A DNA stretch of 63,293 bases, counting the filler, from Cladosporium halotolerans (Eukaryota), in NCBI RefSeq assembly GCF_011745625.1. It is 10 parts of 10 records of this genome, joined end to end, with 100 filler letters (N's around TTAATTAATTAA, not from the genome) between each part and the next. Parts side by side here need not be neighbours in the genome. Positions count along the whole stretch, not along the records: positions 1 to 6,404 come from NW_027191649.1; 9 more parts are not named here. One strand, 5' to 3'. Shown piece by piece: positions 1 through 57,247 of the stretch (position 1 is its first letter; the number at the start of each line of letters is the position of its first letter). The translations under genes were made by a program, and so were the position numbers. The notes under the pieces were generated by a model, which was given only the letters and a program-made list of their open reading frames with translations, was not told the DNA's origin and did not search any database.

Positions 1-1349
1 AGGGGATTGAATGTACCAGGCAATTCGCAGCCCCTGCTTCTCCGCATCAATTGTGTAACTTCTTTGAGGTAGTCTGATCTGGAGACCCCATTAGGTTCAA
101 GGACCTCTTCCTCAGGAGTCTCAACAATGATGCGAGCGTGACCTTCTTCTCGTATCGTCTCTTCAAAGTCGATCAAGGTGTTTTGAATGACCGCTCGTAG
201 ACGTCTCCGGTACCCATCCTCCGTCATCGCATTTCCGAAGAACTGGTCGTTGTACATGCCATCCACAGCTGACCTGATGAGAGCGGAAAGATCATGGCTG
301 ACCTTCAGGAGGTAGCGACGTTGGTCTGCTATTGTTGCTCTAGAGCTGCCAAGTTGCGCCAAGATGTTGTGACTTGCGGCGATACCGGCGCCCACATCGT
401 CCAAAAGGCTAGGTAGTTGGAGAAGGATCTGGTCTTTGAGGACGTTGCTCAATCGAATCTTTAGCGTCTTGGCTCCCAAAAATGATGACTCGATGGAAGC
501 CCACGCTCCACTAGCGAAAAATGTCTCTTCTATCTTGTCCCGTGCGATGGATGTGGTGTTTCTTGTTTCGTAGCTTCTGTTTCGCAGTACATGCCAGCCC
601 AACCGGAAAACGACGTCTTTATTCTGTGCAAGCCTCACATATGAGCTCTCGCTATCTGAGCCAGGATCCAAAGTGTCTGGTTTCGTTATGAGTCCGAGCG
701 TACGCATTCCTTCCGGGTCTAGATTTCGTGCCAGCTCTGTGACCTCTTGTAGAGCAAAGTCGCTCTTGGCGGATACGACGGCGAGTATGATGCTCCTCGG
801 CCTTTTCATATATCCAACCACCATATTTCTGACAGTATCTGCATCCTCAACCGATTGGTCTTGGTTTCCAGCTCGGAAGAGACCCGGAAGATCGACCATT
901 GTGAGGTGTGGTTGAAGAGGCCCACAAAGCTCGACTCGGAGAATGTCAGTGCTGAATCTTTTGACATCTGATAGGCCCATGACTTCTTTCGCCTTCTCAA
1001 CGACTTCACCCAGGTCGGGCGTCTCATTCTCAAAGTCGTAGCCGAATTTTGAAAGATGCTGTCGCTCGCGGTCTGTTCGGTTTGGACCAGCAGTGATAGA
1101 TATCTTGACAGTTTCGTTTTGTGCGCGCCGCAGTACGAGCTCTGTAGCGAACCTTGTGCACAGGTTGTCCTTCGTTGGGAACGACATGCCAGAAATAGCT
1201 TCGAGGACCGAGCTCTTTCCGGCTGACTGGTCGCCGCAAACCACAATTTCAGGCAGATCCACATACTTGCTAATGCCTTTGGATCGAAGTCTGTCGATGA
1301 TATCCAGTAACTGCCGGTGTTGCTCGGATTGTAGCTCTACTGAAGACAT
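1..1349 (-). CDS. Dynamin-family (Mx-like) GTPase, 3'-truncated at contig edge
   Basis: Manual translation from ATG at 1349 (not in the ORF track because it runs off the window): MSSVELQSEQHRQLLDIIDRLRSKGISKYVDLPEIVVCGDQSAGKSSVLEAISG (G1), LCTRFATE (G2), MVDLPGLF (G3), ITKPD (G4), LGWHVLRNR. Confidence 0.93.
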   Translation of the reverse strand, partial: MSSVELQSEQHRQLLDIIDRLRSKGISKYVDLPEIVVCGDQSAGKSSVLEAISGMSFPTKDNLCTRFATELVLRRAQNETVKISITAGPNRTDRERQHLSKFGYDFENETPDLGEVVEKAKEVMGLSDVKRFSTDILRVELCGPLQPHLTMVDLPGLFRAGNQDQSVEDADTVRNMVVGYMKRPRSIILAVVSAKSDFALQEVTELARNLDPEGMRTLGLITKPDTLDPGSDSESSYVRLAQNKDVVFRLGWHVLRNRSYETRNTTSIARDKIEETFFASGAWASIESSFLGAKTLKIRLSNVLKDQILLQLPSLLDDVGAGIAASHNILAQLGSSRATIADQRRYLLKVSHDLSALIRSAVDGMYNDQFFGNAMTEDGYRRRLRAVIQNTLIDFEETIREEGHARIIVETPEEEVLEPNGVSRSDYLKEVTQLMRRSRGCELPGTFNP

Positions 1350-2676
1350 GGCGAGCACGCGGAAGTCCCGTGACTAGTTCAGAAAACAACTTCTTTTCTA
1401 GAAGAGAAAATTGCAAAAAGGCTATTGCTTGCCAATGTCACAATTGCTTTTGTCACTTCAGCGTGCAATGTCCAGACTAAGTACTCTGTGATGCGGGATA
1501 ACTTGAGGATTTTCGAATTTGCCAAGAATGGAAATGCAGGGTCACAAACCTCTTGACAACGCATACTTCTACCTTCTCGATACAAAGTCCCGATCAGTGA
1601 TGCGATATAATAACGCAAGCCGCATGCATCACACCAATGTTTCGCTTAGTAGAAGCATTCTTACAGTAGTGTCTATGGCAACCTCTGGTGTGAGAACCTG
1701 ACTTATGTGGCCTCTGCACTGAATACCGGTGAGCTCATCAGCGAAGGCAAATTGAGCTCGTTTGCATGTGCCCCACTTACAGGCCTGGAGAAGCACAACT
1801 TGCAGCTCTAATGTGCTAGCTCATTGACCCACCTAAGACTGCGGAAGAACGTTCCGACCTCCGCGCATCGAAGTGCAGAATCATAACGCATGGCTGATAG
1901 CACTAAGTAGCTGCTTCGCCGCCACTGAGCTCTTGACACGCATACAGTCGCTTGCTCCGTCCGCATGACGTGTCGGCCGAGATTCTTTACTGCAGCGTGT
2001 TTGACTCTTATTTGCTGCCTCATAGCTTAACAACAGGCGACTGAGCTCTCTTGCTGTAGCTCACGATACTGTCCTTCCTGGTGATTCGATTCACGGCTGG
2101 ACGGAGGTTACCCCCAGTTTTTTAGAAATGAGCGTCCTGTTATGCCAGGCGCTGAAATCACACAACAACCTCTCCAGCCACGTTAGAGTGCAAGAGAGGG
2201 ACGTCGAGTGGCGACAGCCTCACGAATTGTATCTGGCGTATCAGGTAAGCTTTACGCCCGGCTGAAAATAAATCCGCTTTCACGCGGCTGCGCTCTGATT
2301 GGCAGTAAAAGGATGTGGATCAACGTGCGATCGCGGATAATGGTAGAGAAATCCTTCATATGACCACTCCTTGCCCATTAGTTGAGCTTTCACTTAACGT
2401 GGACAATCAACATTCGTCAGATTATTCCATCACCACAATGTCCACACCAGCCACAATCTTTGTCACAGAGAGCCCAGTTTTGCTCATTATCGTCGTACAA
2501 CGCATATCGAGAAGAGACGTCGTTGTACGGAGAGGTCAGCGAACACTTCGGTTTGCCTTTCCTGGCTTTGCCGCCGTTCTCACCACCCTCTGGCACAAAT
2601 ACGACGGGTTGATATCGCAGCTCGCCAGCGTGAAACTGTCAGAGGTCAGTAAGATAACAAGGTGGGGGTACAGACC

Positions 2677-3603
2677 TCATACTGCGGACTGGGCTAAGAC
2701 CTCCTGGTTTGCAAGTGGAGTCGGCCCACAGGTCGTCGAAGCTGCTACTGTCACGTTCGACCTGGTTTCTCTCTTGGGCGGAAACCTCCAGCTTTTAGGG
2801 CCTAAGCTTTTTTGTCTTCCATGATGCTTGTAGCTTGGACTTCTTGACTCGTTTAGCCGTTTCTCGGTTTCGACTCGGGCTTTTTCCAACCAGTGGCAGC
2901 TCATCCGTTTTTGATAAATCGCAGAGAGTAGAGGTAAAAACTCAACATCACCAACGCAGTAGTCAATGAGAACTTGCGGAAGAGGTCGAACGTTGAAGAC
3001 TTCGTAGGTTCCACCGAGTTTGGGGTCAAACTTTTTGATGACTTCTTTCTTCGTGTTTTGCCATTGCAATAGGGCTTCTGACGGCAAAGCTTGCTCTTGC
3101 TCTATGCACTTGGCGAGGCCGCACAAGGCGTGCTTCATGCCTTTTCTAGATGCCAGCTCTAGAAGCTGTACATCCACCACTCCGTCCAGTCGGACGCCAA
3201 ACAGAGCGTACAATGCGTCGGAGTCGTTTCGGACATCGAATAGATACTTCTTGATGGCCTTAGACTCCAGTGCATCCTTGAGAGATTTTCCTTCGGAACC
3301 GGTCGTGTCGAAAGCTGTCATGCCCAAAATGTGAATATCGATAATGAACGCTTGTTCGCACGACGGGACAAGTATCTGTACGAGGGAAATGGAGCCATGA
3401 CGAGATAAGTTGATTCCTTCCAAGTCCATGTAGATGGAACCAAAGCTCTTTTGGAGGTGTGCCAAAGTATCAACAAGGGACTTAACAGTAGCGGGGGTGT
3501 CCACCATCACCGCGGTGGTCAACCTCCAGGTGTTCTGTGGACCAGGTTCGCTGAGCTCGAGTTTTCCCATCTCTTTGATGGCGCCCATCTCAGGTGATGT
3601 CAT
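2677..3603 (-). CDS. DnaQ-like (DEDDy) 3'-5' exonuclease, EXD1/Egalitarian-like
   Basis: 308-aa intronless ORF with ExoI YMDLEG, ExoII FDVRNDSDAL, DVQLLELA and ExoIII YCVGDV motifs. Confidence 0.88.
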   Translation of the reverse strand: MTSPEMGAIKEMGKLELSEPGPQNTWRLTTAVMVDTPATVKSLVDTLAHLQKSFGSIYMDLEGINLSRHGSISLVQILVPSCEQAFIIDIHILGMTAFDTTGSEGKSLKDALESKAIKKYLFDVRNDSDALYALFGVRLDGVVDVQLLELASRKGMKHALCGLAKCIEQEQALPSEALLQWQNTKKEVIKKFDPKLGGTYEVFNVRPLPQVLIDYCVGDVEFLPLLSAIYQKRMSCHWLEKARVETEKRLNESRSPSYKHHGRQKSLGPKSWRFPPKRETRSNVTVAASTTCGPTPLANQEVLAQSAV

Positions 3604-4411
3604 TGCAACAAGGTTACTGGAGGTGGTTGTCAGGTAAAGAGACGGTAGACCAGTAGAACTTGGGTAGATCCAATTTTGATGATTGCAGACACGCCTGGTT
3701 GCACCAAAGAATCTTTTTGCGAGAGAGCAAAGTTTTTTTACTATTGGACGAGAGCTTGCAAAATAATACCGTGGTTGCTGCCGACGATAGTTCTCATAAG
3801 ATGGCCTGTGCGTATCGGTTCCGAAGTCAAAGGCTCTACGTTCGTTAGAAGCGAAGAGACACCGATCGTATCATGATCAGAGGCTGGCGCTCTTTTCAAG
3901 ATGGAGAAGTCGGGCTTCGCCGGTCGGAAAGTAATGATGTTCGACAAGCGCAAGCGAGTCGCAAGTGGAACTATGGGAACAGGATTTAAATATTGTTGCA
4001 GCAAATGGAAATCGTTGCCCTTACCCCTCAAGAAGCTCACGACGTTTAGGTCGCATGTAGTGATAGCTCCATTGCATGCATCCGAAGTTCGACCAGCGAC
4101 CTATCGCGGTGTAACCTTAGTGTTCTCGTGTGTGATCAACGTAACCTGAGAAGTCCTTGCAATGCATGCTGCATAGATCGGAAATGCAGCACTCATGCAC
4201 ATGCTTCCTCGGTTCGTGCTGGCACCACCGCTAATCAAGAACCGTTCATGCTTAGCTGTGGTGGCGGGGAGCTCGCTCCGGCAGCGCTTGGCGCATGATA
4301 TGACAATTTGCAGTACATCTTATTTAAGCCCATGCGCATAGGTGTGCGTAGCCCTCAACTTTGCCGATGCAAGCTAACAACAAGCAGAGTTATTAGTAGC
4401 GCGTGGTGTTG

Positions 4412-4915
4412 TCATGTGTTCTCGCATCTTGAGCTAGGCCATGCTTTTGCGACAGCGCACGCCTGCATGAAGGATCGGAGTAACCTTGTGTTGTCCAGCG
4501 ACAGCTCATGCCAGCCATAATGTTCGGATATATCAGCTCCCCAGACAGCTACGATAGCCGTTTGGTGTCTGATTCCCTGGGCATCATGAGCTCGTGTCTG
4601 CTGCGACCGCTGTGCAAGGCTGGCGAAAGATTTCCACGCTTCGGTATCTTGCCCTCGTTGTGGCTTATGCAAGAAAGGAGCGAAAGCGTTGGTGAAAGCA
4701 GCGGCGATATCATCCGCCCACATGGATACTCTCATAATCGTGTCACGGCATGTACGACATATTTTCGCCTTGTCGGCATCGCTCTTAGAACGAACGAGCT
4801 CGCGGTCGAACTCCGCAGCCAAGCTGAGTGCTGCCGAGCCAAATGATGTAGTAGGGTTCTTTTTGGTGGTCGACGACACTGCGAGTGAAATGGAAGGGCC
4901 CGCACCGAGAGCCAT
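4412..4915 (-). CDS. Hypothetical protein
   Basis: ATG at 4915 (MALGAGPS...) opens 167 codons inside a longer open frame. No recognisable motif. Co-oriented with neighbours. Confidence 0.3.
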   Translation of the reverse strand: MALGAGPSISLAVSSTTKKNPTTSFGSAALSLAAEFDRELVRSKSDADKAKICRTCRDTIMRVSMWADDIAAAFTNAFAPFLHKPQRGQDTEAWKSFASLAQRSQQTRAHDAQGIRHQTAIVAVWGADISEHYGWHELSLDNTRLLRSFMQACAVAKAWPSSRCENT

Positions 4916-5441
4916 GTTTGGTACGGTTCGGCGGAAAGTCTCGTGAGTCGGGGCCACGATCACTATGTAGAACGTGCTTTGGCGATCGCCTATATTCGAG
5001 AGAAGATCATCGGGTACGGATCCTGTGTGCAGGCGGTGACTGATAACCCGAACCCTTGACCTCATCTTGGAATGGAGACACACACAATCCTTCGCTTTGC
5101 TTCTCCAGTCTCGAATCCACAACTGTCCACAAGCTCTCCTATTTTCGCCATGGCTTGCAAATTCATGCGTCCGTTCGTGCAAGATACAACCGGTGCCGAA
5201 CATCTGTAATTGGCGTTCCGTACAGCCAGGAGATCCGTACAGCTGTCGACCAAGTCGCGCCACTGGTCGCAGCTGTGCGAACTACAAAGAATATTTTTAT
5301 CCTACTGGCAGTCGTTTGTCGATGGTTTGATGCTTAGCATGGCGCAGAAGCTTAACAGAGGTGTGTCAGGCGTGGAGGCGATGTAGAGAGAACTAATGTT
5401 TCATTTCTATCTCTATTTCAAAATATCCGCCGCAGCTATCA

Positions 5442-6404
5442 CTACTGATTTGGTATAACTCTGACTTCACCGCTTATCTTCCGCCTCTGCCACACTCTAT
5501 CCGCTCTATTTGTCATGTCGTCCAGCGGCCGCTTCCGTGAAGGCAGAGAGCCTGAGGGGAATCCCAAAAAGTCATGCCACTCTTGGCTAACTCGGCGATA
5601 CTCTGACTTTCTCGCTTCGACGTGCCCAGCAGCCTCCTCCAGCCCACGAGCATATGTTATACCTGCTGTCCAGGATGTGTGAGAGCCTTGTCTATCCACC
5701 CCAGACTCCTCTAAGCCGTAGTCACGTTTGAAGCCGCCGCATTTAAGATGCTTCCGAGAGATAGCAACCGCCAGGTGTCGGTACAAAGATATGTTCATTG
5801 CGACACCGAATGCTTGCTTCGTCTCGCGCTGGAGTACGCGACTGAGTCTGGAGCTATCCCAAGGATCGAGGCTTCCTTGCTTCGCCCATACGAATGGGGA
5901 CGGAAGGTCTCTTCTACGCAAAGCAAGCATCTCTAGCTTTCTGAAAAATGGTTGAATGAGCCAGAGGTAGTATACTAGAAGCTCTCCGACCGCCTTTGGT
6001 AAATAGCGGTGGATGATCTTTGTGTTACCAGTGGTACTGTAGCCTTTGTGGTAGGTTGTCACTGTGCTCACCATGCCGCCCTCGATGAAAATGTTCCTGT
6101 GGTGGCCGCTAACAGTATTGACATGCCTCAAGCTCAGTGTCTCGCTGCCTCGGGCTGGCTGACCTGCCGTAAGGTGGACAAGTAGGAGCAACTGCTCGAG
6201 GAATGCCTCGACTTGGAGGAAATATGTTTGACACATGCTTTGATTCCAACGTTGTTCTGCGGCTGTACTTCCCGCACAAATGAACTCATCCTGGAGCCAC
6301 GGGGTCTCAAGTACTCTTTTCAAGAGCCATACGTCTCGATCTGGCAGAGGACCTTGAAGGTTCTGTGGATGACGCAAGAAGCTCCAGCCCTTCTGGTTCT
6401 CCGT
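5442..6404 (-). CDS. Tyrosine-recombinase-like protein resembling the N-terminal region of fungal telomere-linked RecQ helicase (DUF3505-associated) proteins; 5' end lost in gap; no helicase domain follows
   Basis: Frame open from the gap (TENQKGWSFLRHPQN...) to the stop at 5442. Motifs: LTAGQPARGSETLSL, TTYHKG, IIHRYLP, SLYRHLAVAISR, QGSHTSWTAGITYAR, SQEWHDFLG. Family recognised from memory; the recombinase reading is inference. Confidence 0.75.
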   Translation of the reverse strand, partial: TENQKGWSFLRHPQNLQGPLPDRDVWLLKRVLETPWLQDEFICAGSTAAEQRWNQSMCQTYFLQVEAFLEQLLLLVHLTAGQPARGSETLSLRHVNTVSGHHRNIFIEGGMVSTVTTYHKGYSTTGNTKIIHRYLPKAVGELLVYYLWLIQPFFRKLEMLALRRRDLPSPFVWAKQGSLDPWDSSRLSRVLQRETKQAFGVAMNISLYRHLAVAISRKHLKCGGFKRDYGLEESGVDRQGSHTSWTAGITYARGLEEAAGHVEARKSEYRRVSQEWHDFLGFPSGSLPSRKRPLDDMTNRADRVWQRRKISGEVRVIPNQ

Positions 6405-6504
6405 NNNNNNNNNNNNNNNNNNNNNNNNNNNNNNNNNNNNNNNNNNNNTTAATTAATTAANNNNNNNNNNNNNNNNNNNNNNNNNNNNNNNNNNNNNNNN
6501 NNNN
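6405..6504. other. Artificial contig spacer (44N-TTAATTAATTAA-44N); also at 12907-13006, 19355-19454, 25774-25873, 32189-32288, 38559-38658, 44852-44951, 51002-51101, 57148-57247
   Basis: Nine identical 100-nt spacers containing a six-frame stop linker. Confidence 0.98.
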
Positions 6505-11767: not shown

Positions 11768-13162
11768 GCTTGCAGCAAAGTTTCTGCCTTAAGGAGGACG
11801 AGGATGAGAGCTTGCCGAAACAGAACTATGCAAAGTAACTACACAGATCGTCGAAAGCAGAGTCACCAGCAAGGGTATCGCAAAGATGTTGTTGAAGCAA
11901 ACTAAACCACGGCGCCGGAGAGGCGCAAGTGAAAGGCTGATCCCAGGGCTGCAGTGCAGAAATTCGAGGTACAGCACACGGAAGGTTTCATATTACCATA
12001 CCAAGAGAGAGAGCACGAAAAGCGAGGACGTAGTTACATGGGTAGGATCACGACGGGAACTTGATCGAAGACCTGTGCTTCGAGATAGAACCCCACTGTA
12101 ACTTTATACATATTCAACAGCGCTATTAAGTCGGCGATCTACTTTTCTGCAAGAAGCCACTTATTCGAAAACACAGCATCGCGAGAAGGGCGTACGGTCA
12201 AGCCACCGAATGAGCCAGTTCATCAGTTCAGTGGGTAACAGGTACTGTATTGACATCGAAACCTGTCATTATGAAGCATGAAACACGGAGGTAACTCCGA
12301 CTTCACATGCACCCTATGGGAGTCAACTCTTTCAGATCAAAATCTCGTTGCTTGACCGTGCCTGCTTTGGATGTGAATTCTAACGAGTTTTTCCTGACGA
12401 GATTGCTACCGACTGCCACTGACAAGTGGGGCATCTGGCTAAATTTCCTTCGCCTGACCTTGTTGGAGTCGAACTGGTACATGTACAGACCCCAAGGATC
12501 TCATACGATGCAGCATTCCGTCAGATCATCGCAGCTACCGCAAAGCGCAAGAGGTGAGATGAGTCTTCGTCATGGCCCACTCATTATCCTCTGCACCTGG
12601 TGAGCTTCAAAGAACACAAGCTAGGCTGTGCGAGCTTCTCATCCGCGCCCAAAATCATCTCAAGGAAGAACGTACACCAAGCGGATTACACCTCACAGGA
12701 GAGCGGAATCCGATCAGAAGGCTCGGCATGTGTCTAAACAGCCGAAAGTCAAGACAAAGAACAAATCTGAAGCTGACTGTACAGGATGATAGATTCGGCA
12801 TGCGAGAACGGCACTTGCACAGTCCTGGTCACGGCATTTCTTGATTTCTTGCTTCGAGTACCTTGATAGCCGCTTTTGCTCATCCTTTGAGCTACACTGA
12901 ACCCCTNNNNNNNNNNNNNNNNNNNNNNNNNNNNNNNNNNNNNNNNNNNNTTAATTAATTAANNNNNNNNNNNNNNNNNNNNNNNNNNNNNNNNNNNNNN
13001 NNNNNNCGAGCTGCGACGACGGGCGCACAGTGGCGGCCATTGGTTAGATCTGCCAACTAGGCACAGTATTTACTTGAAAAGCGTCCTTTTTCTCAAAAAC
13101 AATAACAAGTTCAATATCCTCTTTTGGGTGCCTGTCCGCCCACTCAGTTATTCTGATACATA

Positions 13163-15312
13163 CAGTAGAAAGCTTCCCCACCTCAGGCACGGACACACCT
13201 CAGGCACGCTTGACGGGCCCGGTGTCGAGGAGCTCCTACTACTTGTATCTCACACATCAATGGCCCAATACGGCTGAAAGCATACCACCAGGAAGCTACA
13301 GTACTACTATACAAGTCTGCGACAGTTTCATGTTTTAAATCGTGCTGGTCGGCGCACTGGCCGGCCTTTCGCCGTTGTCGCCACCTCCACGGGCTCAACG
13401 ACTACTGGCTCTCGTATAGTGTTTGTAGCCTTCTGAGCAGCTAACTTACCCTTTGATCGGCTTCGTAGACGCCTGTGCCCAGCCCTCGATTCTTTTTCGG
13501 TCTGTTTCTGAGCTTTCTTAGCCTCTCGTGACGCCTGAGCTGCGGCCTTCTCCTGAGCTGCAGCTGTCTTGCGAGCAAAAGCAGTCGCAGCTCGTTCATC
13601 TCGCTTCCTCTGCGCCTCTACCTGCTTCTGCACCTTCTTTGCAGCTCGTTCTCGAGTCCTGGCCTCTTTTTCTTGCTGCGACTGCTCCTTCTCTCGCTCT
13701 CTGCCCAATGCAATGTCTCGAGTCTTCTGGTTTTTGGAAGGGCTCATGAACAGCGTCTCAGATGGGCCGGACGCTCTCAGCTCGTCTACAACCTTCCGCC
13801 TCTTCTTCTTTCGCCCCTCCTCTTGGCGTAGATACTCACTCAAGCGCTTGACTCTCAGATCCGACAACACAAGCTTCGCTGAGAGACCGAGCACCGTGTC
13901 ACTCAGCCTCTCCGGTGTCTCTTGCGTCTTGTTATCGCTACGTGCCGATTCGACATTGAGCATACTTCTGAGCCTTTTTGTCTTCGACGGTGAATCGTAT
14001 ACACTCGGTGGACTGCCGCTTGAGCGTTGCGTGCTTCGCTGGGACCTGGTCTTAGCTTCCTGGGCTTCGGGGAAGGATTTGAGCACTTTCTGGGGATCAA
14101 AAGGCCAGATCCCGGTCTTCGACCAAGCCGACACTATGTTCTCCTCCGAGAAGGCTTTCTCGAAGGCTGGCCAGAAGATCGAGAAGAAGTCTCGTTTGCT
14201 GATGCTTGTGCGGCCTTCTGACTTCCTGACTAGGTCGTCGAGCGCCTGGCTGTAGTAATTGGCCAGTGGGGCAAAGACGCCCACATCGAGAGGCTGCAGC
14301 CTGTGTGTGGAGTGAGGCGGGTAGACGGCGAGCAAGACCTTGTGCTGCTCGCACCAGTCGAGGAACTTCATGTTGACGTGTGAGCCATGTCCGTCGACGA
14401 ATAAGAGCCTGTGAGATCGCCTCGCTTTGGACGCCGTTTCCTTCTCGAATAGGCCTGTCAGCCAGCTGTAACCGAGCTCGTCGCTCGTCCATCCGTTCGG
14501 CGATGATGCAAAGTGGCAGTTGTGTTCGTCCGGCTCGAAGTCGTTGAGCCACGTGTCTTGTAAGTTGCCGGAGATCGCCTTGTAGATCAAAGCTGGCGAT
14601 AAACGCGTGCCATCTGCACAGATCGCTGCCACAACCGTGACCCACTCTCTACTGCCGTCCTGCCCGGCTCCTGCGAGGCCGCCTCGCTCGTACAGCTCTC
14701 GTGCGATGATTCTGCGAGTCTTTTGTAGCTTGCCGATGAGGAAACCCTTCTCATCCATGTTGTATATATTGTCAGCACTTATCTTGTATTCTTCTATTTT
14801 TCGACCAACGATGGTGAAGTAGGCCTCGTAGTTACTCCCGGAGTCGGCTCTGTGACGTGCGAGGTCGATGGTGTTGAGATATCGGGCGTCAAGCCTATGC
14901 TTGTGTCTTGCCACGAATCGCGAGGACCAGCTCTTTGAAAGCCTTCTCCCACACAACTCTTGAGCTATATTGGCCACAATCTTGGGCGTAGGTGGAAGGC
15001 AACGCTCGCAAAGATGGTTTATATAGCTTAAAAACTCTTCTTCTTGCTTATCGTTGAGCTTCCTCTGAGACTCGTAACCACGGGGCCTCGAAGAGGTTTT
15101 CGCATGGACACGCTTGCTGAGCGCGGATCTGGTGACCCCGTGCTTTTTCGCTACATCAGATATCCTCAGGCCATCAGAAGACCTCAGATCTGCAAGCGCG
15201 GCATCCATTGAGTTGTTATCGCAGGGCTATCACGCAAAGAAGAGAGCACGTTGGTGTCGCGTCAAGCGTGCCTGAGGTGTGTCCGTGCCTGAGGTGGGGA
15301 AGCTTTCTACGC
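13163..15312 (-). mobile_element. Fot1/pogo-type (Tc1/mariner superfamily) DNA transposon, full length
   Basis: Perfect 51-bp inverted repeats at 13165-13215 and 15260-15310, each with two cacctcaggcacg direct repeats. TA precedes the left end. Encloses a transposase. Confidence 0.93.
13328..15208 (-). CDS. Fot1/pogo DDE_1 transposase, intact 626 aa
   Basis: N-terminal HTH/CENP-B-like region; catalytic motifs NMDEKGF, LFVDGHGSH, HRLQPLDV. Confidence 0.95.
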   Translation of the reverse strand: MDAALADLRSSDGLRISDVAKKHGVTRSALSKRVHAKTSSRPRGYESQRKLNDKQEEEFLSYINHLCERCLPPTPKIVANIAQELCGRRLSKSWSSRFVARHKHRLDARYLNTIDLARHRADSGSNYEAYFTIVGRKIEEYKISADNIYNMDEKGFLIGKLQKTRRIIARELYERGGLAGAGQDGSREWVTVVAAICADGTRLSPALIYKAISGNLQDTWLNDFEPDEHNCHFASSPNGWTSDELGYSWLTGLFEKETASKARRSHRLLFVDGHGSHVNMKFLDWCEQHKVLLAVYPPHSTHRLQPLDVGVFAPLANYYSQALDDLVRKSEGRTSISKRDFFSIFWPAFEKAFSEENIVSAWSKTGIWPFDPQKVLKSFPEAQEAKTRSQRSTQRSSGSPPSVYDSPSKTKRLRSMLNVESARSDNKTQETPERLSDTVLGLSAKLVLSDLRVKRLSEYLRQEEGRKKKRRKVVDELRASGPSETLFMSPSKNQKTRDIALGREREKEQSQQEKEARTRERAAKKVQKQVEAQRKRDERAATAFARKTAAAQEKAAAQASREAKKAQKQTEKESRAGHRRLRSRSKGKLAAQKATNTIREPVVVEPVEVATTAKGRPVRRPARFKT

Positions 15313-15544: not shown

Positions 15545-15846
15545 ACCCGTTTCCTGCGATTGTGTCAGGCTGCAGCTGAAAAGGCCTGGATAAGCCAAGG
15601 TGGTGTGAAACAACCGAAGGAGGCAGCTTGCGCGCCAGGACTCACCCNNNNNNNNNNNNNNNNNNNNNNNNNNNNNNNNNNNNNNNNNNNNNNNNNNNNN
15701 NNNNNNNNNNNNNNNNNNNNNNNNNNNNNNNNNNNNNNNNNNNACCCGTTTCCTGCGATTGTGTCAGGCTGCAGCTGAAAAGGCCTGGATAAGCCAAGGT
15801 GGTGTGAAACAACCGAAGGAGGCAGCTTGCGCGCCAGGACTCACCC
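15545..15846 (+). repeat. Exact 103-bp duplication (15545-15647 and 15744-15846) flanking an internal N gap
   Basis: Identical sequence on both sides of a 96-N gap that lacks the linker; probably an unmerged overlap. Confidence 0.85.
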
Positions 15847-19354: not shown

Positions 19355-19454
19355 NNNNNNNNNNNNNNNNNNNNNNNNNNNNNNNNNNNNNNNNNNNNTT
19401 AATTAATTAANNNNNNNNNNNNNNNNNNNNNNNNNNNNNNNNNNNNNNNNNNNN

Positions 19455-25773: not shown

Positions 25774-26663
25774 NNNNNNNNNNNNNNNNNNNNNNNNNNN
25801 NNNNNNNNNNNNNNNNNTTAATTAATTAANNNNNNNNNNNNNNNNNNNNNNNNNNNNNNNNNNNNNNNNNNNNCAGCCTCCACCTTACGATGCTAGAGTC
25901 TGACGCTTGTAATGGATATGTCGCAAGTTTTTCGGGGACATAAAGCGACAACTCGGCGTTTTGTCCGCGCCGCAGAGATGAATTTAGATCAGTAGATCCG
26001 GGGGACGATTGACGGCAAATTGACAAAGAGTCAAGAATAAACCTAACGTGCGCAATCCAGCGTGATGGCACCAGTTTGCTACAGTACTGAAAGCGTGAAC
26101 ACATACCATTTTGTCGCACGAGATGTTATCCATGAACGTCGCAATGAAGGGTCATTTTGAAATGGTGGAGCTTCTGTCAAATGAGGGCAATGCACCCATG
26201 ACGTTGCGACATTGGCTCGGGTCGGTGGCGTCGAGTTGAGCAGCAGCGACGAACCATCATCCTGCCGCCCTTTTTCTCGGTTGTCGAAGATCGATCCGGT
26301 GCCCAAACCTTTCCTGGCGGAGGTAAGGCCGCAGTAGGGGCATGAATCTACCACACCATAATGTGGCGTTGTAGTCGGATATGCTAAAATGAAGGGCCGG
26401 AATGCTGGCTGCTATGGTCGTGCTCAGTCTCGGCCTTCACATGATTTTGGGGAGATACTGGGAGTGGCGGTCGATGAAATCATTGCTGGCTTACGGACCA
26501 GGCGACTCTTGCGGGACATAGCACAGAACTTACGGGCAGGGCTGTCAGCACGGGAGCGTCTCCACAACTTTACGGTATGCTCAGCCTCCCATCATCTTCA
26601 GCTCACGACCTCTGACCCCTTTGACTTCTTCAACGTTGAACATAACGCCTTTGAGCGCACGCT

Positions 26664-32188: not shown

Positions 32189-32288
32189 NNNNNNNNNNNN
32201 NNNNNNNNNNNNNNNNNNNNNNNNNNNNNNNNTTAATTAATTAANNNNNNNNNNNNNNNNNNNNNNNNNNNNNNNNNNNNNNNNNNNN

Positions 32289-38059: not shown

Positions 38060-38773
38060 TTGTTGACTTGCTGGTGAGGCTTCAGAGCCAAGTCATTCCC
38101 GAAGATCGAGCTGAGACGCGGGCCACAATAGCAGCTGAAAACAGAAAATAGATCGACAATGGTCGTTGGAAATGGGGTCGACTTTACATACAACAGCTAG
38201 GCAATGAGATGAGTTTTGAAAAAAATTTCTTTGTGGCAAGATCCCAAGATCGAATCATGAAGAAGGCGAGGAAAGGTTCAATGAGTGTCATGCGGGCGCT
38301 CGCATTGTCGTCTCCGACGGAACTTGTGCGTACGTTGGTGGCATTTCGAATGCGCATGGATCGTGGCTCACTGGTGAGTATCAGTCGAGCCATTCGGCTG
38401 CTGTGCTTGCTCTAGTCATTGCTTACAATTGGGATTCCCTTCACCTTGTCCCAAGCTCAGAATGCCAACCTCCTGAGCAGGTTGCTGAATGGTGCTTGGG
38501 ATGCCGGCTTTTTGTGGCAGCATCAGCTTTTGGCAAAGCATTTGTTGGGCGAGCTCCCNNNNNNNNNNNNNNNNNNNNNNNNNNNNNNNNNNNNNNNNNN
38601 NNTTAATTAATTAANNNNNNNNNNNNNNNNNNNNNNNNNNNNNNNNNNNNNNNNNNNNCGATGTAAGCGGAAGTTCTGTAACCTTTTACGGTTAGCGCCG
38701 CCTTAGGGTTAGTAGGAGATCAGTGTTCTCCTCCGTTGCCTTTTGGCGAGGTATAAAAAAAATCGGTTTTATG

Positions 38774-44463: not shown

Positions 44464-45956
44464 GGCCGCACTGGGAGAAGCACGCGCGGTAGGTACGCGG
44501 TAGGTACGCGGTAGGCTGCAGAGAGCGGGAGGCCTATCCCACACATGGCTGCGCAGGAGGCCCAAGGTATTTCACGCGCGGCCGCACTCCAGCTCGACGG
44601 CGGCGCCTACGCCTCGCCACCTACCTTACATGGCTTACATTTCAGGTTGACGGCAGCGCCTACGCCTTGCCACGTAACGACTGCGTTACGGGGGTTGCGG
44701 GCGACGGGCAAGGATTGGCATGGAAGGGCGCGGTGGCTTATGACAAGGCCCAGAGGTCGAGGGCAGGCCAGAGCCAATCGAGCATGTCTCGCAGCAGGCC
44801 GACTGCAGGAAAAATGCCATTCCTGACCCGATGGCGGCATCGGCGGTCGGANNNNNNNNNNNNNNNNNNNNNNNNNNNNNNNNNNNNNNNNNNNNTTAAT
44901 TAATTAANNNNNNNNNNNNNNNNNNNNNNNNNNNNNNNNNNNNNNNNNNNNCGGATGTGAGACACAGAGGCGGACACTAAAGGGACACAAGCTGAGGATT
45001 TGCGACAGTTTAGGCAAGCAACTCCAGACACAAGGACCAAGCGAGCTCATTTCGTGCAATGAGCTCACAAAGACAAGCCTTGCGCAGCTCAGACTGCGTC
45101 AACAAGCATAATGCATGTATCTCCTTTTATGTGTACGGAAGGTTGGCAAGACGGAAAGGGCAGCGCGCGCGGTCAATACCGGAGGTGACCAGCCTGTAAT
45201 GGGGGAAAGAGGAGATGGGGAGAGACAAGGTGAGAAAGGTCAGCAGTTGTGACCACATGCGAGAGGCTAGGTACAAATCCTTGGTGGATTGGATCTTCGT
45301 GAATATGCGCCACCAGCAGCCAAGGTCTCGACCGGAGCTTTTCACGAGATGATCGTGGTGGAATTGCTGCTCTCGAAATTTAGATAGTTGAAGACTTGGA
45401 ATTGGATCAAGCTGATGTTTGGCGTCAATCCTGCAAAGTTCGGGAGAACTGGTTTTGTTCCTTCTAGTGCTCCGTTGAGATTCTTCGCTTCAGCAAAGCA
45501 GCGATACCCCAATGCCAAAAGCACATTTTGAGCGAAGGTAGCTTGCTTCACCGATGGCCTAACGCCTGTCAATACCGGCCCCGGAAATGGACGTCTCCGG
45601 GCACGTTGTTTTCAATCATCAATAGAAGGGCGGCGAAGAGTTTGACGCGATATACGTGATCCTTAGGGATAGGGGCGCCGAGAATCAAGTGAGTTAAGGC
45701 AATCGTCAAGTGTTAAGGAGCGTGATCTTGAGTCGCTCACCCAGGACAATGCCGATATGTTTGCATCAAGTCCTCTAAGAAACGATGGTCAAGGCGACTG
45801 TTCAAGTTGGGTGATTGTAAGGTTTGATCAGCATGAAGCCATCAAGCCACGGGCTTCCTCCTTCGCCTTTTGCCATCGTGGTCATCGTTCTCGTCATCGT
45901 CGAAGGTACTCCTCCATACTGGAGAGGCATTGATTGCGCACCGGCACTGTACGCTA

Positions 45957-49159: not shown

Positions 49160-51101
49160 TCACGCGATTTCAAAAGTGCCAAGTAATCGCTGGGTTCTCT
49201 AGCTCGCCAAACGACCGGCCGGCAGCCGACGCGCGCTGAGCGAATCAGCGCACCCCACTTCGCCATACCAAAGGCATGACCAGCTGCCACCCTCGCCTCC
49301 GCGGTCATAGAGTCCCTATGTACATTCTGTGCCACAAAACTGATCTTCTTCCTCTTGACGTCATCTCATTGTGTAATTCACCTAACCCAAACATATGAAA
49401 CCCCCTTTGTCCTGTATCTGTCTACTGTGGTTCTTGCGGCGCTGTGGCACCATGTCTTCGACCATATACCTGTCCCCTAGTGCTCAGCTCGTCTCTTATG
49501 TTGTGGCTCTCGACTCTCTGGGCGCATGCCGATGCGCTGAGTGCGATCCACGTGTTCTTGTTGCCTCCTACTAGGATCTTCAATGTGGCCATATTAATGC
49601 GAGCGTCTTTCGTCGTCCACAGCAACTTCGATGTCTCTGTCGGCATTCAGCAATACGAGAACGATGTTCCACTCCTGCAGGGCTTCGAATCACTAGGCAT
49701 GAGAGCTCTGGCGTGAATCTCCTCGGGCATCCTCATACGGTGAAGGGTGACCAGTCCTTCACCAATAGTTTGGGGGGCGACAGTGGGAGAGGCTCTCAGT
49801 GTATCTGCAGTATTATGTGGTACCGGTGTGTAGCGTGCCGATGCCGGGTGCTCGATTTGCGTAGAGATGATCCCGTTCTGTTCGAAGTCCTGCCGGCGTG
49901 AGACGTCGCAGACGTTGGCGGGTGTTTTGATGGACCTGCTCCCGGTCCATCCGTGGCTGTGTAGTGACTGTGTTGCTGAAAGTTGTCTGGGCTCAGTCGT
50001 CAAACCCGTACTGCTGAACTCTGACTTAGCACTGCACTGCTGCTAACGCCGAAAGACGTTCTGCCTCGTGGCTTGCTCTTGATGTTCTGCATGAATTATC
50101 CACTGCATTGATGAGAGCTCCTCTGCAGGCCCTGTGTCCACGCCGAGTCGCGCTATGACCTGTACAGGGGAAAATCGTCACGTGTGGACGTGATTGCGGC
50201 CGTGTCACTTGGGCTTTCCGCTCTTTCGCACCTGCTCCGTGCACCTCGTCCAAGTTGTTGAGGTCTCTTTGGTTCTGCCAACTGTTGCCAGTGACAGGTT
50301 CGTAGCCGGCACCACGGACAGGTGGACCTCATCGCCGGCCTCTCTTGACATGCTTTCGGAATATCTAGGACGCTCTTTGGCCAAGTGTAATGGAGAGTTG
50401 AAGTATCGAACTGGGCAAATTGGGTGTGAAAGGGTTGATTGTGCTGTGTATCTACTGCTGGGGCCATCCACTGCATTATACCTTCAGTAGGTCTGTGGCG
50501 GTCTGGATGCTCTTGTCCAGCAATCTTCAACACGAACAACAATTTCAATCATTGAGAATATTGCAGCTAGGGACGTCATCACATGACAACTCGTATGCAT
50601 CTATGGAACGTCGAGGTATCTGGGAGATACCGCTTCGCATGAACCGTGGCCCACAATGTGCACCCATTGCTAAGGCATTCTTGACTGCTGGATGCTTAAG
50701 TTCAGGTGATAAGTCGGCCATAGTCGATAATCCAGTGGTAGCAGACCCGTTGAAAAGTCCGCAGGATAGAAAATCCCAAGTCAGTTGAATTGATCTTCTG
50801 ATAGCCACAAAGTTCTGCAGCAGCTATAACGATCCAAATAATGGTTGTCGGTGCCAAGGAATTCAGCTGTGGGGATTGTTCGGCTTTTGGTGAGGATCCT
50901 CATAGACGTCTTCCCTGGCTCGTGCACATCCCTGACTCGTGCACACTTTGGAAGCTCGACAACAACGCGCTTCAACACGCGATATCTTCCTAACCATGGC
51001 TNNNNNNNNNNNNNNNNNNNNNNNNNNNNNNNNNNNNNNNNNNNNTTAATTAATTAANNNNNNNNNNNNNNNNNNNNNNNNNNNNNNNNNNNNNNNNNNN
51101 N

Positions 51102-56415: not shown

Positions 56416-57247
56416 TGTAGCAGCTTCCGGTCAGACAACGATGCGTGCGATAGAATGCAGGTTCTTGCTTTCGAGATCGAATAGTATCCTGTGCTAGGTG
56501 TTCTTCGGAGGAGCCGCTTGCTGCGTGACGGTGCAGCAAGGTGGTGCGAGATATCTTGGTCAACTCACGGAGGTATCAAGAAGAGGCAGTGAAGGGGAAG
56601 GTAGAGACACAACGTGTGGACAACATGCCTGCCCGAACATATAAGCAGGGCGTAGGGTCCTTGATCCGTGTTAATGTGATGCGTTCCCACCTGCTCGCTA
56701 CCAGTGAATGCCCGGTCCTGCAAGTCAGATGATTGGGCGGGATATCAAGCGGAACATGCAGCTCTCCTGCATGAGGGGCAAGCTTTAGCCAGTCACATTT
56801 GTGACGTATCGTGAAGCGATACATAACTTACAGCCCTGACAACGACGCAACCGAACGGGAGGTCTTAGCGCCCAGCGTGTGATCGCACAACGCTCCAGCG
56901 GCTTACAAAGTTAGACGTGTAATGTACTGTAGCGCGTGGGGATTTAAATCTACGGTGCTGCCAGGGCGAGCCGGGAAGCAGGGTAAAAGCCAAAATGCCA
57001 AGCATTTCAGTTGGACAGTTCAACCCAAATGCTTGGCATCACGTGGGATGGGTAATTGTCACGGGCAGAGTAAGGTTAATTTAGATTAGAAAAAAAGCAT
57101 CAAGTCGCATCCAAGCTAAATAGCCTATGAGGCGTCGGCTACCGTAGNNNNNNNNNNNNNNNNNNNNNNNNNNNNNNNNNNNNNNNNNNNNTTAATTAAT
57201 TAANNNNNNNNNNNNNNNNNNNNNNNNNNNNNNNNNNNNNNNNNNNN

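Follow-up and report, generated by a model that had tools for sequence, protein, structure and literature searches.

A helicase-less relative of fungal telomere-linked helicases with a predicted tyrosine-recombinase-like catalytic domain

What kind of enzyme is encoded at positions 5442 to 6404 of the stretch of Cladosporium halotolerans DNA analysed here (63,293 nucleotides; hereafter the window)? Descriptions of fungal genes for telomere-linked helicases (TLHs) go back to the late 1990s, and a sequence-only reading of this locus had recognised the protein type as the region upstream of their RecQ domain, with the dispersed catalytic residues of a tyrosine recombinase and no helicase. Our analysis makes it probable (about 0.75) that the locus is the 3′ end of a Pezizomycotina-wide, helicase-less gene, sister to the TLH genes, and that the C-terminal domain of its product is a DNA breaking-rejoining enzyme of the tyrosine-recombinase or type IB topoisomerase kind. 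The features on which the argument turns are as follows.

5442 to 6404, minus strand: 3′ part of an OrsD-zinc-finger/TLH-domain gene, comprising the C-terminal 320 codons and the stop codon TAG (5442-5444)
5652 to 6152, minus strand: putative core of a tyrosine-recombinase-like catalytic domain, codons R85 to Y251, drawn from conservation and structural match
6150-6152, 6045-6047, 5778-5780, 5679-5681 and 5652-5654, minus strand: codons of R85, K120, R209, H242 and Y251, respectively

All the motif strings quoted in the sequence-only reading were found in the minus-strand translation of 5442-6404. They are LTAGQPA-R-GSETLSL, YH-K-GY, SLY-R-H and GS-H-TSWTAGIT-Y, and they contain R85, K120, R209/H210, H242 and Y251. 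The open reading frame (ORF) had been given as 311 aa, but the frame has 320 codons, and the ORF that begins at the first in-frame ATG (residue 57) has 264 aa (5442-6236); the earlier residue numbers equal the frame numbers minus 9. The spacing H242-x8-Y251 is, as claimed, the same as in the sequence records of Escherichia coli XerD (GHSDLSTTQIY) and lambda Int (GHKSDTMASQY). When homologues were aligned, the five residues that had been singled out as R76, K111, R200, H233 and Y242 (here R85, K120, R209, H242 and Y251) proved near-invariant. Among 374 proteins, R85 was retained in 348/351, K120 in 366/369, R209 in 351/357, H242 in 340/348 and Y251 in 341/344, so that each of the five has a retention of 97-99% among the informative sequences, which number 344-369. 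Jointly, they were present in 235 of 237 complete proteins (144/146 of the helicase-type and 91/91 of the full-length short-type described below), and in 110 of 116 N-terminally truncated short entries. Because alignments of 125 and 63 proteins, which cover both architectures and reach down to about 30% identity, have just 13-15 invariant columns and all five residues, along with E88, are among them, the motif observation is real and lies far beyond chance. The predicted secondary structure fits the recombinase layout as well: in a hairpin, K120 comes after strand 2; R209 is part of a helix; and Y251 marks the end of a short helix ahead of the long C-terminal helix.

The predicted structure led to the same group of enzymes. 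Two independent models were examined, one of which was built from the 63-sequence alignment, and both in Foldseek and in a Foldseek-independent search their best matches were tyrosine recombinases, with the predicted domain resembling the catalytic domains of Xer, Cre and Int. Recombinases outscored topoisomerases in every structural search. The earlier proposal of a tyrosine-recombinase catalytic fold is thereby backed, and the models support a C-terminal domain of about 300 aa with the fold shared by tyrosine recombinases and type IB topoisomerases. Within it, R85 is presumed to be Arg-I, in a TGxRxxE-like motif, K120 the hairpin lysine, R209 Arg-II, H242 His-III and Y251 the nucleophilic tyrosine. 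From these roles we infer a catalytic scheme, in which the zinc finger and helical region would bind DNA, Y251 would attack a phosphodiester to form a 3′-phosphotyrosyl intermediate, and the strand would then be rejoined to itself or else to partner DNA, the latter as a step of recombination or of the integration or excision of a selfish repeat.

Several results weigh against this assignment. The ORF matches 0 Pfam families, and 32 family members gave no match to Phage_integrase (PF00589) or DUF3435 (PF11917) at E up to 10. The family profile A1, compared with PDB sequences, retrieved 0 chains at E up to 10, and its comparison by hhalign with single XerD and Cre sequences produced spurious matches of 12-32 columns alone. 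When 359 family segments were aligned by hhalign with 15 E. coli and phage recombinases, the score remained weak (E 0.15, probability 0.4%), even though the alignment set R85 in register with XerD R148, K120 with the Lys of GKG, R209 with R247, H242 with H270 and Y251 with Y279. The Foldseek E-values were themselves weak, 3e-3 to 5e-3, and the H242-Y251 stretch is the lowest-confidence part of both models, with predicted local distance difference test (pLDDT) values of 34-42 and 48-50. In addition, the first His of the HxxR box is, as had been noted, not conserved; position 206 is Ser in the window copy and L/S/P/A/Q/T across the family. Signs of a mobile unit were also scarce. Megablast and blastn comparisons among 80 metagenome loci carrying family members gave no shared termini, similarity between DNA copies begins at the ATG (L024 versus L053) and stops anywhere between the interior of the ORF and a point about 280 nt beyond the stop codon, and no target-site duplications, insertion polymorphisms or empty sites were found. 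In favour of the assignment, the nearest named clusters in a protein atlas were Phage_integrase and NDC10_II, at 0.84 each, which is a lead at most. What supports the recombinase assignment is predicted fold together with conservation, and not sequence statistics or experiment.

The relation to TLHs emerged from the family itself, which comprises hundreds of relatives of the ORF in Pezizomycotina. A word-indexed search at E ≤1e-3 returned 303 proteins of near equal length and 376 longer ones, and an exhaustive search returned 2,941 representatives at E ≤1e-3, 299 of them at ≤1e-30. Most were named hypothetical in their source records, and two from Aspergillus were named putative telomere-associated RecQ helicase. 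Two architectures were distinguished. The short form, of about 840-920 aa (full-length about 870), has an N-terminal PF12013 domain (OrsD, with a C2H2-type finger), a helical middle and the query domain at the C terminus, and ends about 50-70 residues past the Tyr; OrsD scored above the cut-off in 10 of 14 scanned short-form relatives and a helicase in 0/14. In the long form, of 1400-1700 aa, the query domain is followed by DEAD and Helicase_C domains in 23 of 24 scanned representatives, 17 of these 23 having OrsD in addition. The precomputed Pfam column of the longer relatives held only PF12013 or nothing (120/120 among the matches listed), and when the domain of protein P0259 was used for searching, most of the 120 matches listed were of the long, helicase type. 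Classification of 359 relatives revealed a RecQ-type helicase fusion in 146. Family genes are single uninterrupted frames, as at L018 484-3162 (protein P0124), where the ORF is intact and encodes 893 aa.

The query domain is 30-47% identical to the pre-helicase segment of these RecQ-type OrsD + DEAD + Helicase_C proteins, which bears out the view that it corresponds to the region upstream of RecQ in fungal TLHs. The published TLH layout consists of two N-terminal C2H2 motifs, a 'TLH domain' of about 250 aa and RecQ motifs (10.1101/2024.02.27.582403; 10.1101/2022.03.07.483234). By this correspondence of layout, with the named TLHs compared through their descriptions, we equate the query domain with the published TLH domain.

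The 5′ end of the gene is set by the assembly, as indicated by the following features.

6405 to 6504, no strand: artificial, non-biological contig-joining spacer, N44-TTAATTAATTAA-N44, which terminates the ORF frame
12907-13006, 19355-19454, 25774-25873 and 32189-32288: further spacers, N runs included
38559-38658, 44852-44951, 51002-51101 and 57148-57247: further spacers, N runs included

The 320-residue frame is open on the minus strand from the first base after the N run, without a start codon in the window, and in the stop-to-stop listing its 5′ end meets the spacer at 6405. The self-complementary 12-mer TTAATTAATTAA, which carries a stop in all six frames, occurs nine times in the window (6449, 12951, 19399, 25818, 32233, 38603, 44896, 51046 and 57192), and the blocks between spacers, about 6.0-6.4 kb each and arranged in falling order of size, correspond to about 10 small contigs. 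The recurring spacers thus reveal the window as a string of small contigs with the ORF cut by a contig end, and any feature that touches a spacer is likewise cut by assembly. A further run of 96 N at 15648-15743 is separate from the spacers. In agreement with truncation, the database protein P0002 (540 aa) aligns to the ORF without gaps, with a match at 290 of the 320 residues, and is longer by 220 aa on the N-terminal side, and a DNA contig (X4 record 22) that matches 5240-6404 runs 956 nt beyond 6404. The fragment is therefore truncated N-terminally by assembly, with about 550 residues missing, including the OrsD/C2H2 zinc finger. It follows that the protein is not 'stand-alone' as had been supposed; the contig end cuts a gene whose full-length relatives have 840-920 aa. 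The ratio of nonsynonymous to synonymous substitution rates (dN/dS) was 0.02-0.13 against six relatives, the ratios being rough in the five of six comparisons with dS >2.5, and such values show that purifying selection acted on the protein in the past. Sequence near-identical to 5300-6404 (65-94% of sampled words) was also detected in air, dust, surface, urban and fermentation metagenome runs and in several coded organisms, which suggests that the source is a widespread airborne fungus.

A missing 5′ end leaves the question of a helicase at the 3′ side, where two features are relevant.

4412 to 5281, minus strand: open frame of 289 codons downstream of the gene, with no Pfam family and not a helicase
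5386 to 5441, minus strand: putative 3′ untranslated region, marked by the end of an RNA-library contig (X15 record 9, covering 5386-6231 with 12 differences)

With a complete helicase-type protein as query, tblastn matched the TLH-domain part alone in the whole 63-kb window. The downstream frames on the same strand are the 289-codon frame, a 3′-5′ exonuclease and a dynamin-family GTPase, with no helicase among them. The contig X15 record 9 carries 16 unmatched T (plus strand) at 5386, which read as poly(A) in the coding sense and lie 56 nt downstream of the stop codon; as a single contig, it provides a hint alone. RNA runs X15 and X16 contain the gene at 95-99% identity, although contigs of this kind are no proof of transcription. 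A tree was then built from 55 randomly chosen domains of the 146 helicase-type proteins, 55 of the 91 full-length short-type ones, and P0001 and P0002. It needs only 4 architecture changes, as compared with 37.6 on shuffling (none of 500 shuffles went so low), and the row of the window gene lies inside an all-short clade of 15 rows with a Shimodaira-Hasegawa-like approximate likelihood ratio test (SH-aLRT) value of 99. Taken together, the tblastn result, the downstream frames, the poly(A) contig and the tree clade establish that the absence of the helicase is genuine and that the window gene belongs to a lineage without helicase, sister to the TLHs. The earlier statement that the ORF stops without a helicase thus holds, with no spliced helicase exon found downstream in the window.

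If the domain does break and rejoin DNA, it may do so as part of a selfish repeat or in the service of the host. On the latter account, the protein would be an active host factor, similar to a type IB topoisomerase or resolvase, that acts at chromosome ends on intermediates of recombination or replication, an alternative which we hold to be unlikely. By an analogy of the same limited likelihood, the domain would in TLHs be coupled to the fused RecQ as in helicase-topoisomerase pairs. The RecQ-type fusion in 146 of the 359 relatives classed would suit this role, and so would the failure to find element termini and the position of some helicase-type genes. Of the 80 metagenome loci, 26 are of the helicase type, 20 lack a helicase over a downstream stretch of at least 1.5 kb, and 34 are too short for a decision; in 5 of the 26 helicase-type loci, the locus ends in runs of TTAGGG, 1.3-6 kb past the gene, which amounts to 3 distinct places because L067 and L068 are duplicates, and likewise L092 and L093. 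The helicase-type genes in L067/L068 (12931-14038), L088 and L092/L093 point towards the chromosome end. Between gene and (TTAGGG)n, L067/L068 have tandem subtelomeric repeats, and the sequence of L088 is repeated in part. Telomere repeats were found at 0 of the 20 helicase-less loci, however, which speaks against service at chromosome ends, as does the rank of recombinases above topoisomerases in every search. In the window, whose gene-bearing contig measures just 6.4 kb, no TTAGGG/CCCTAA run of at least 2 units was present.

The distribution and condition of the copies also argue against a host factor, in that the family is multi-copy and patchy. In-frame stops, 1-11 each, occur in the close relatives L020, L046, L017, L019 and L021, and L020 (GC 44%) and L046 have an excess of C-to-T/G-to-A changes in CpA/TpG context, the pattern that repeat-induced point mutation would leave. 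The copies sit among transposons and variable genes; their diverse flanks contain HNH_2, dynamin, NLR, hAT, Tc1, kinase and copia reverse transcriptase sequences, and no constant neighbour gene was seen in the flanks of the metagenome loci. In the window itself, one further feature bears on a repeated unit.

5309 to 5361, no strand: positions at which contigs from two DNA runs diverge from the window, with ends at 5309 (X1), 5360 (X1) and 5361 (X4, 3 contigs)

These ends, 81-133 nt past the stop codon, may mark the 3′ border of a repeated unit that holds the gene, for which they are weak evidence. In run X1, contigs with 11-28 differences match parts of the gene, and others have 0-2, a pattern that fits diverged gene copies in one run; it is a hint, since the run is unlabelled and contig depth gives no copy number. 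Repeats within 1-6404 were at chance level only. Two or more family members, of the same or mixed architecture, share a contig in L090 (1530-5531 and 10900-14265), L087 and L037; an identity of about 65-72% at the DNA level marks these as old paralogous arrays and not recent duplicates.

The diverged X1 contigs, the copies with stops and C-to-T changes, the transposon-rich flanks and the contig ends at 5309-5361 thus lean to the side of a selfish repeat, and as judged from sequence the data as a whole point both ways. We consider it conceivable, if doubtful, that TLH genes and their helicase-less relatives form an unrecognised superfamily of eukaryotic tyrosine-recombinase elements, selfish and telomere-targeting, rather than host telomere-maintenance genes. 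Chromosome ends and other repeats would in that case be the sites at which the recombinase domain integrates or exchanges the unit.

A second alternative accepts the ancestry and denies the activity: the domain would descend from a recombinase but have lost catalysis and serve to bind DNA, in the manner of Ndc10 domain II or the DUF3504 of Crypton-derived genes. The loss of the His of HxxR might be read in this way, and domesticated DUF3504 is described in PMC3212892 as lacking most of the R-H-R-Y tetrad. Unlike DUF3504, however, the present family has R, K, R, H and Y in 235 of 237 complete proteins across about 30% identity, which is hard to explain without catalysis, and we regard a dead module as quite improbable. 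Because the full set of nucleophile and activators is invariant across two architectures, the domain is probably catalytic and not a DNA-binding relic of the DUF3504/Ndc10 kind. A merely coincidental motif match in a domain unrelated to tyrosine recombinases would accord with the lack of a significant match by any sequence-profile method, but it is very improbable indeed, given that two independent models place recombinases first, also in the Foldseek-independent search, that the residues predicted to be catalytic coincide exactly with invariant ones, and that even the weak hhalign alignment has the five residues in register.

The surroundings of the gene and the other contigs of the window include the following.

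3-1373, minus strand: dynamin-family GTPase gene, downstream of the gene
2677-3870, minus strand: 3′-5′ exonuclease gene (DNA_pol_A_exo1), downstream of the gene
13328-15226, minus strand, on another contig: frame of 632 codons with a DDE_1 (pogo/Tc5-type) transposase domain

A dynamin-family gene also occurs about 7 kb from a related gene in L018/L024 (L018 9725-11059, minus strand; 30-42% identity), and dynamins, ribonucleases, helicases and C2H2 proteins are described together on an accessory chromosome of Botrytis cinerea (10.1101/2022.03.07.483234). The dynamin and exonuclease surroundings may thus be a recurring neighbourhood. The 4412-5281 frame has a relative at L053 3715-4113, upstream of a gene copy (56% identity, 132 aa), and many variant contigs of run X4 cover 4000-5000, so that this stretch is itself repeated. 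Other contigs of the window contain fragments of histidine kinase, phenol hydroxylase, tyrosinase, LicD, GT1 trehalose-synthase-like and mpaB-type oxygenase genes.

Comparison with known systems places the family closest to the TLHs of Magnaporthe oryzae (TLH1), Schizosaccharomyces pombe (Tlh1/2), Ustilago maydis, Fusarium oxysporum and B. cinerea (BcTLH), with which it shares the TLH domain and the published layout. Our helicase-type loci sometimes end in TTAGGG repeats, whereas the window gene and its clade have no helicase and no telomere repeat was seen with them. From the prokaryotic and phage tyrosine recombinases (XerA/XerC/XerD/XerH, Cre and lambda Int; PF00589), the family differs in having no PF00589 match and no HxxR His, in its large inserts, its eukaryotic hosts and its optional RecQ helicase fusion, and in that an N-terminal zinc finger and a long helical region replace the usual core-binding domain. 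With Cryptons and Starship captains it shares a fungal host range, intronless and multi-copy genes, a recombinase-like domain and transposon-rich variable regions. Nevertheless, at the sequence level it is distinct from the DUF3435 captains, as had been proposed, with 0 of 32 members matching PF11917 at E up to 10. The Crypton tetrad is R-H-R-Y (PMC3212892), and by comparison with this published description it is incomplete in our family, where R, R and Y are kept and the HxxR His is not; the words helicase and C2H2 have 0 occurrences each in that paper. Cryptons are further marked by a single recombinase gene and short terminal direct repeats, whereas no termini were found among our loci. Type IB topoisomerases matched less well than recombinases in structure, and no match to their N-terminal clamp domain was obtained.

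A full-text literature search, which covered neither subscription papers nor InterPro nor bioRxiv supplements, yielded no publication that connects the TLH domain with tyrosine recombinases. The literature found to use the term 'TLH domain' made no mention of a recombinase, and DUF3505 or RecQ appeared together with tyrosine recombinases in unrelated contexts only. The domain is best filed in the tyrosine recombinase/type IB topoisomerase superfamily, whereby the TLH domain would be reinterpreted.

If the domain is indeed a breaking-rejoining enzyme, strand cleavage and exchange through Y251 becomes a concrete and testable hypothesis. The family would then join Flp, DIRS/Ngaro, Cryptons and Starship captains as another lineage of fungal recombinases, one with an unusual RecQ fusion, and would bear on the reshuffling of subtelomeres and accessory regions. 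Were the existence of a telomere-targeting superfamily to be confirmed as well, it would explain the spread of TLHs among subtelomeres.
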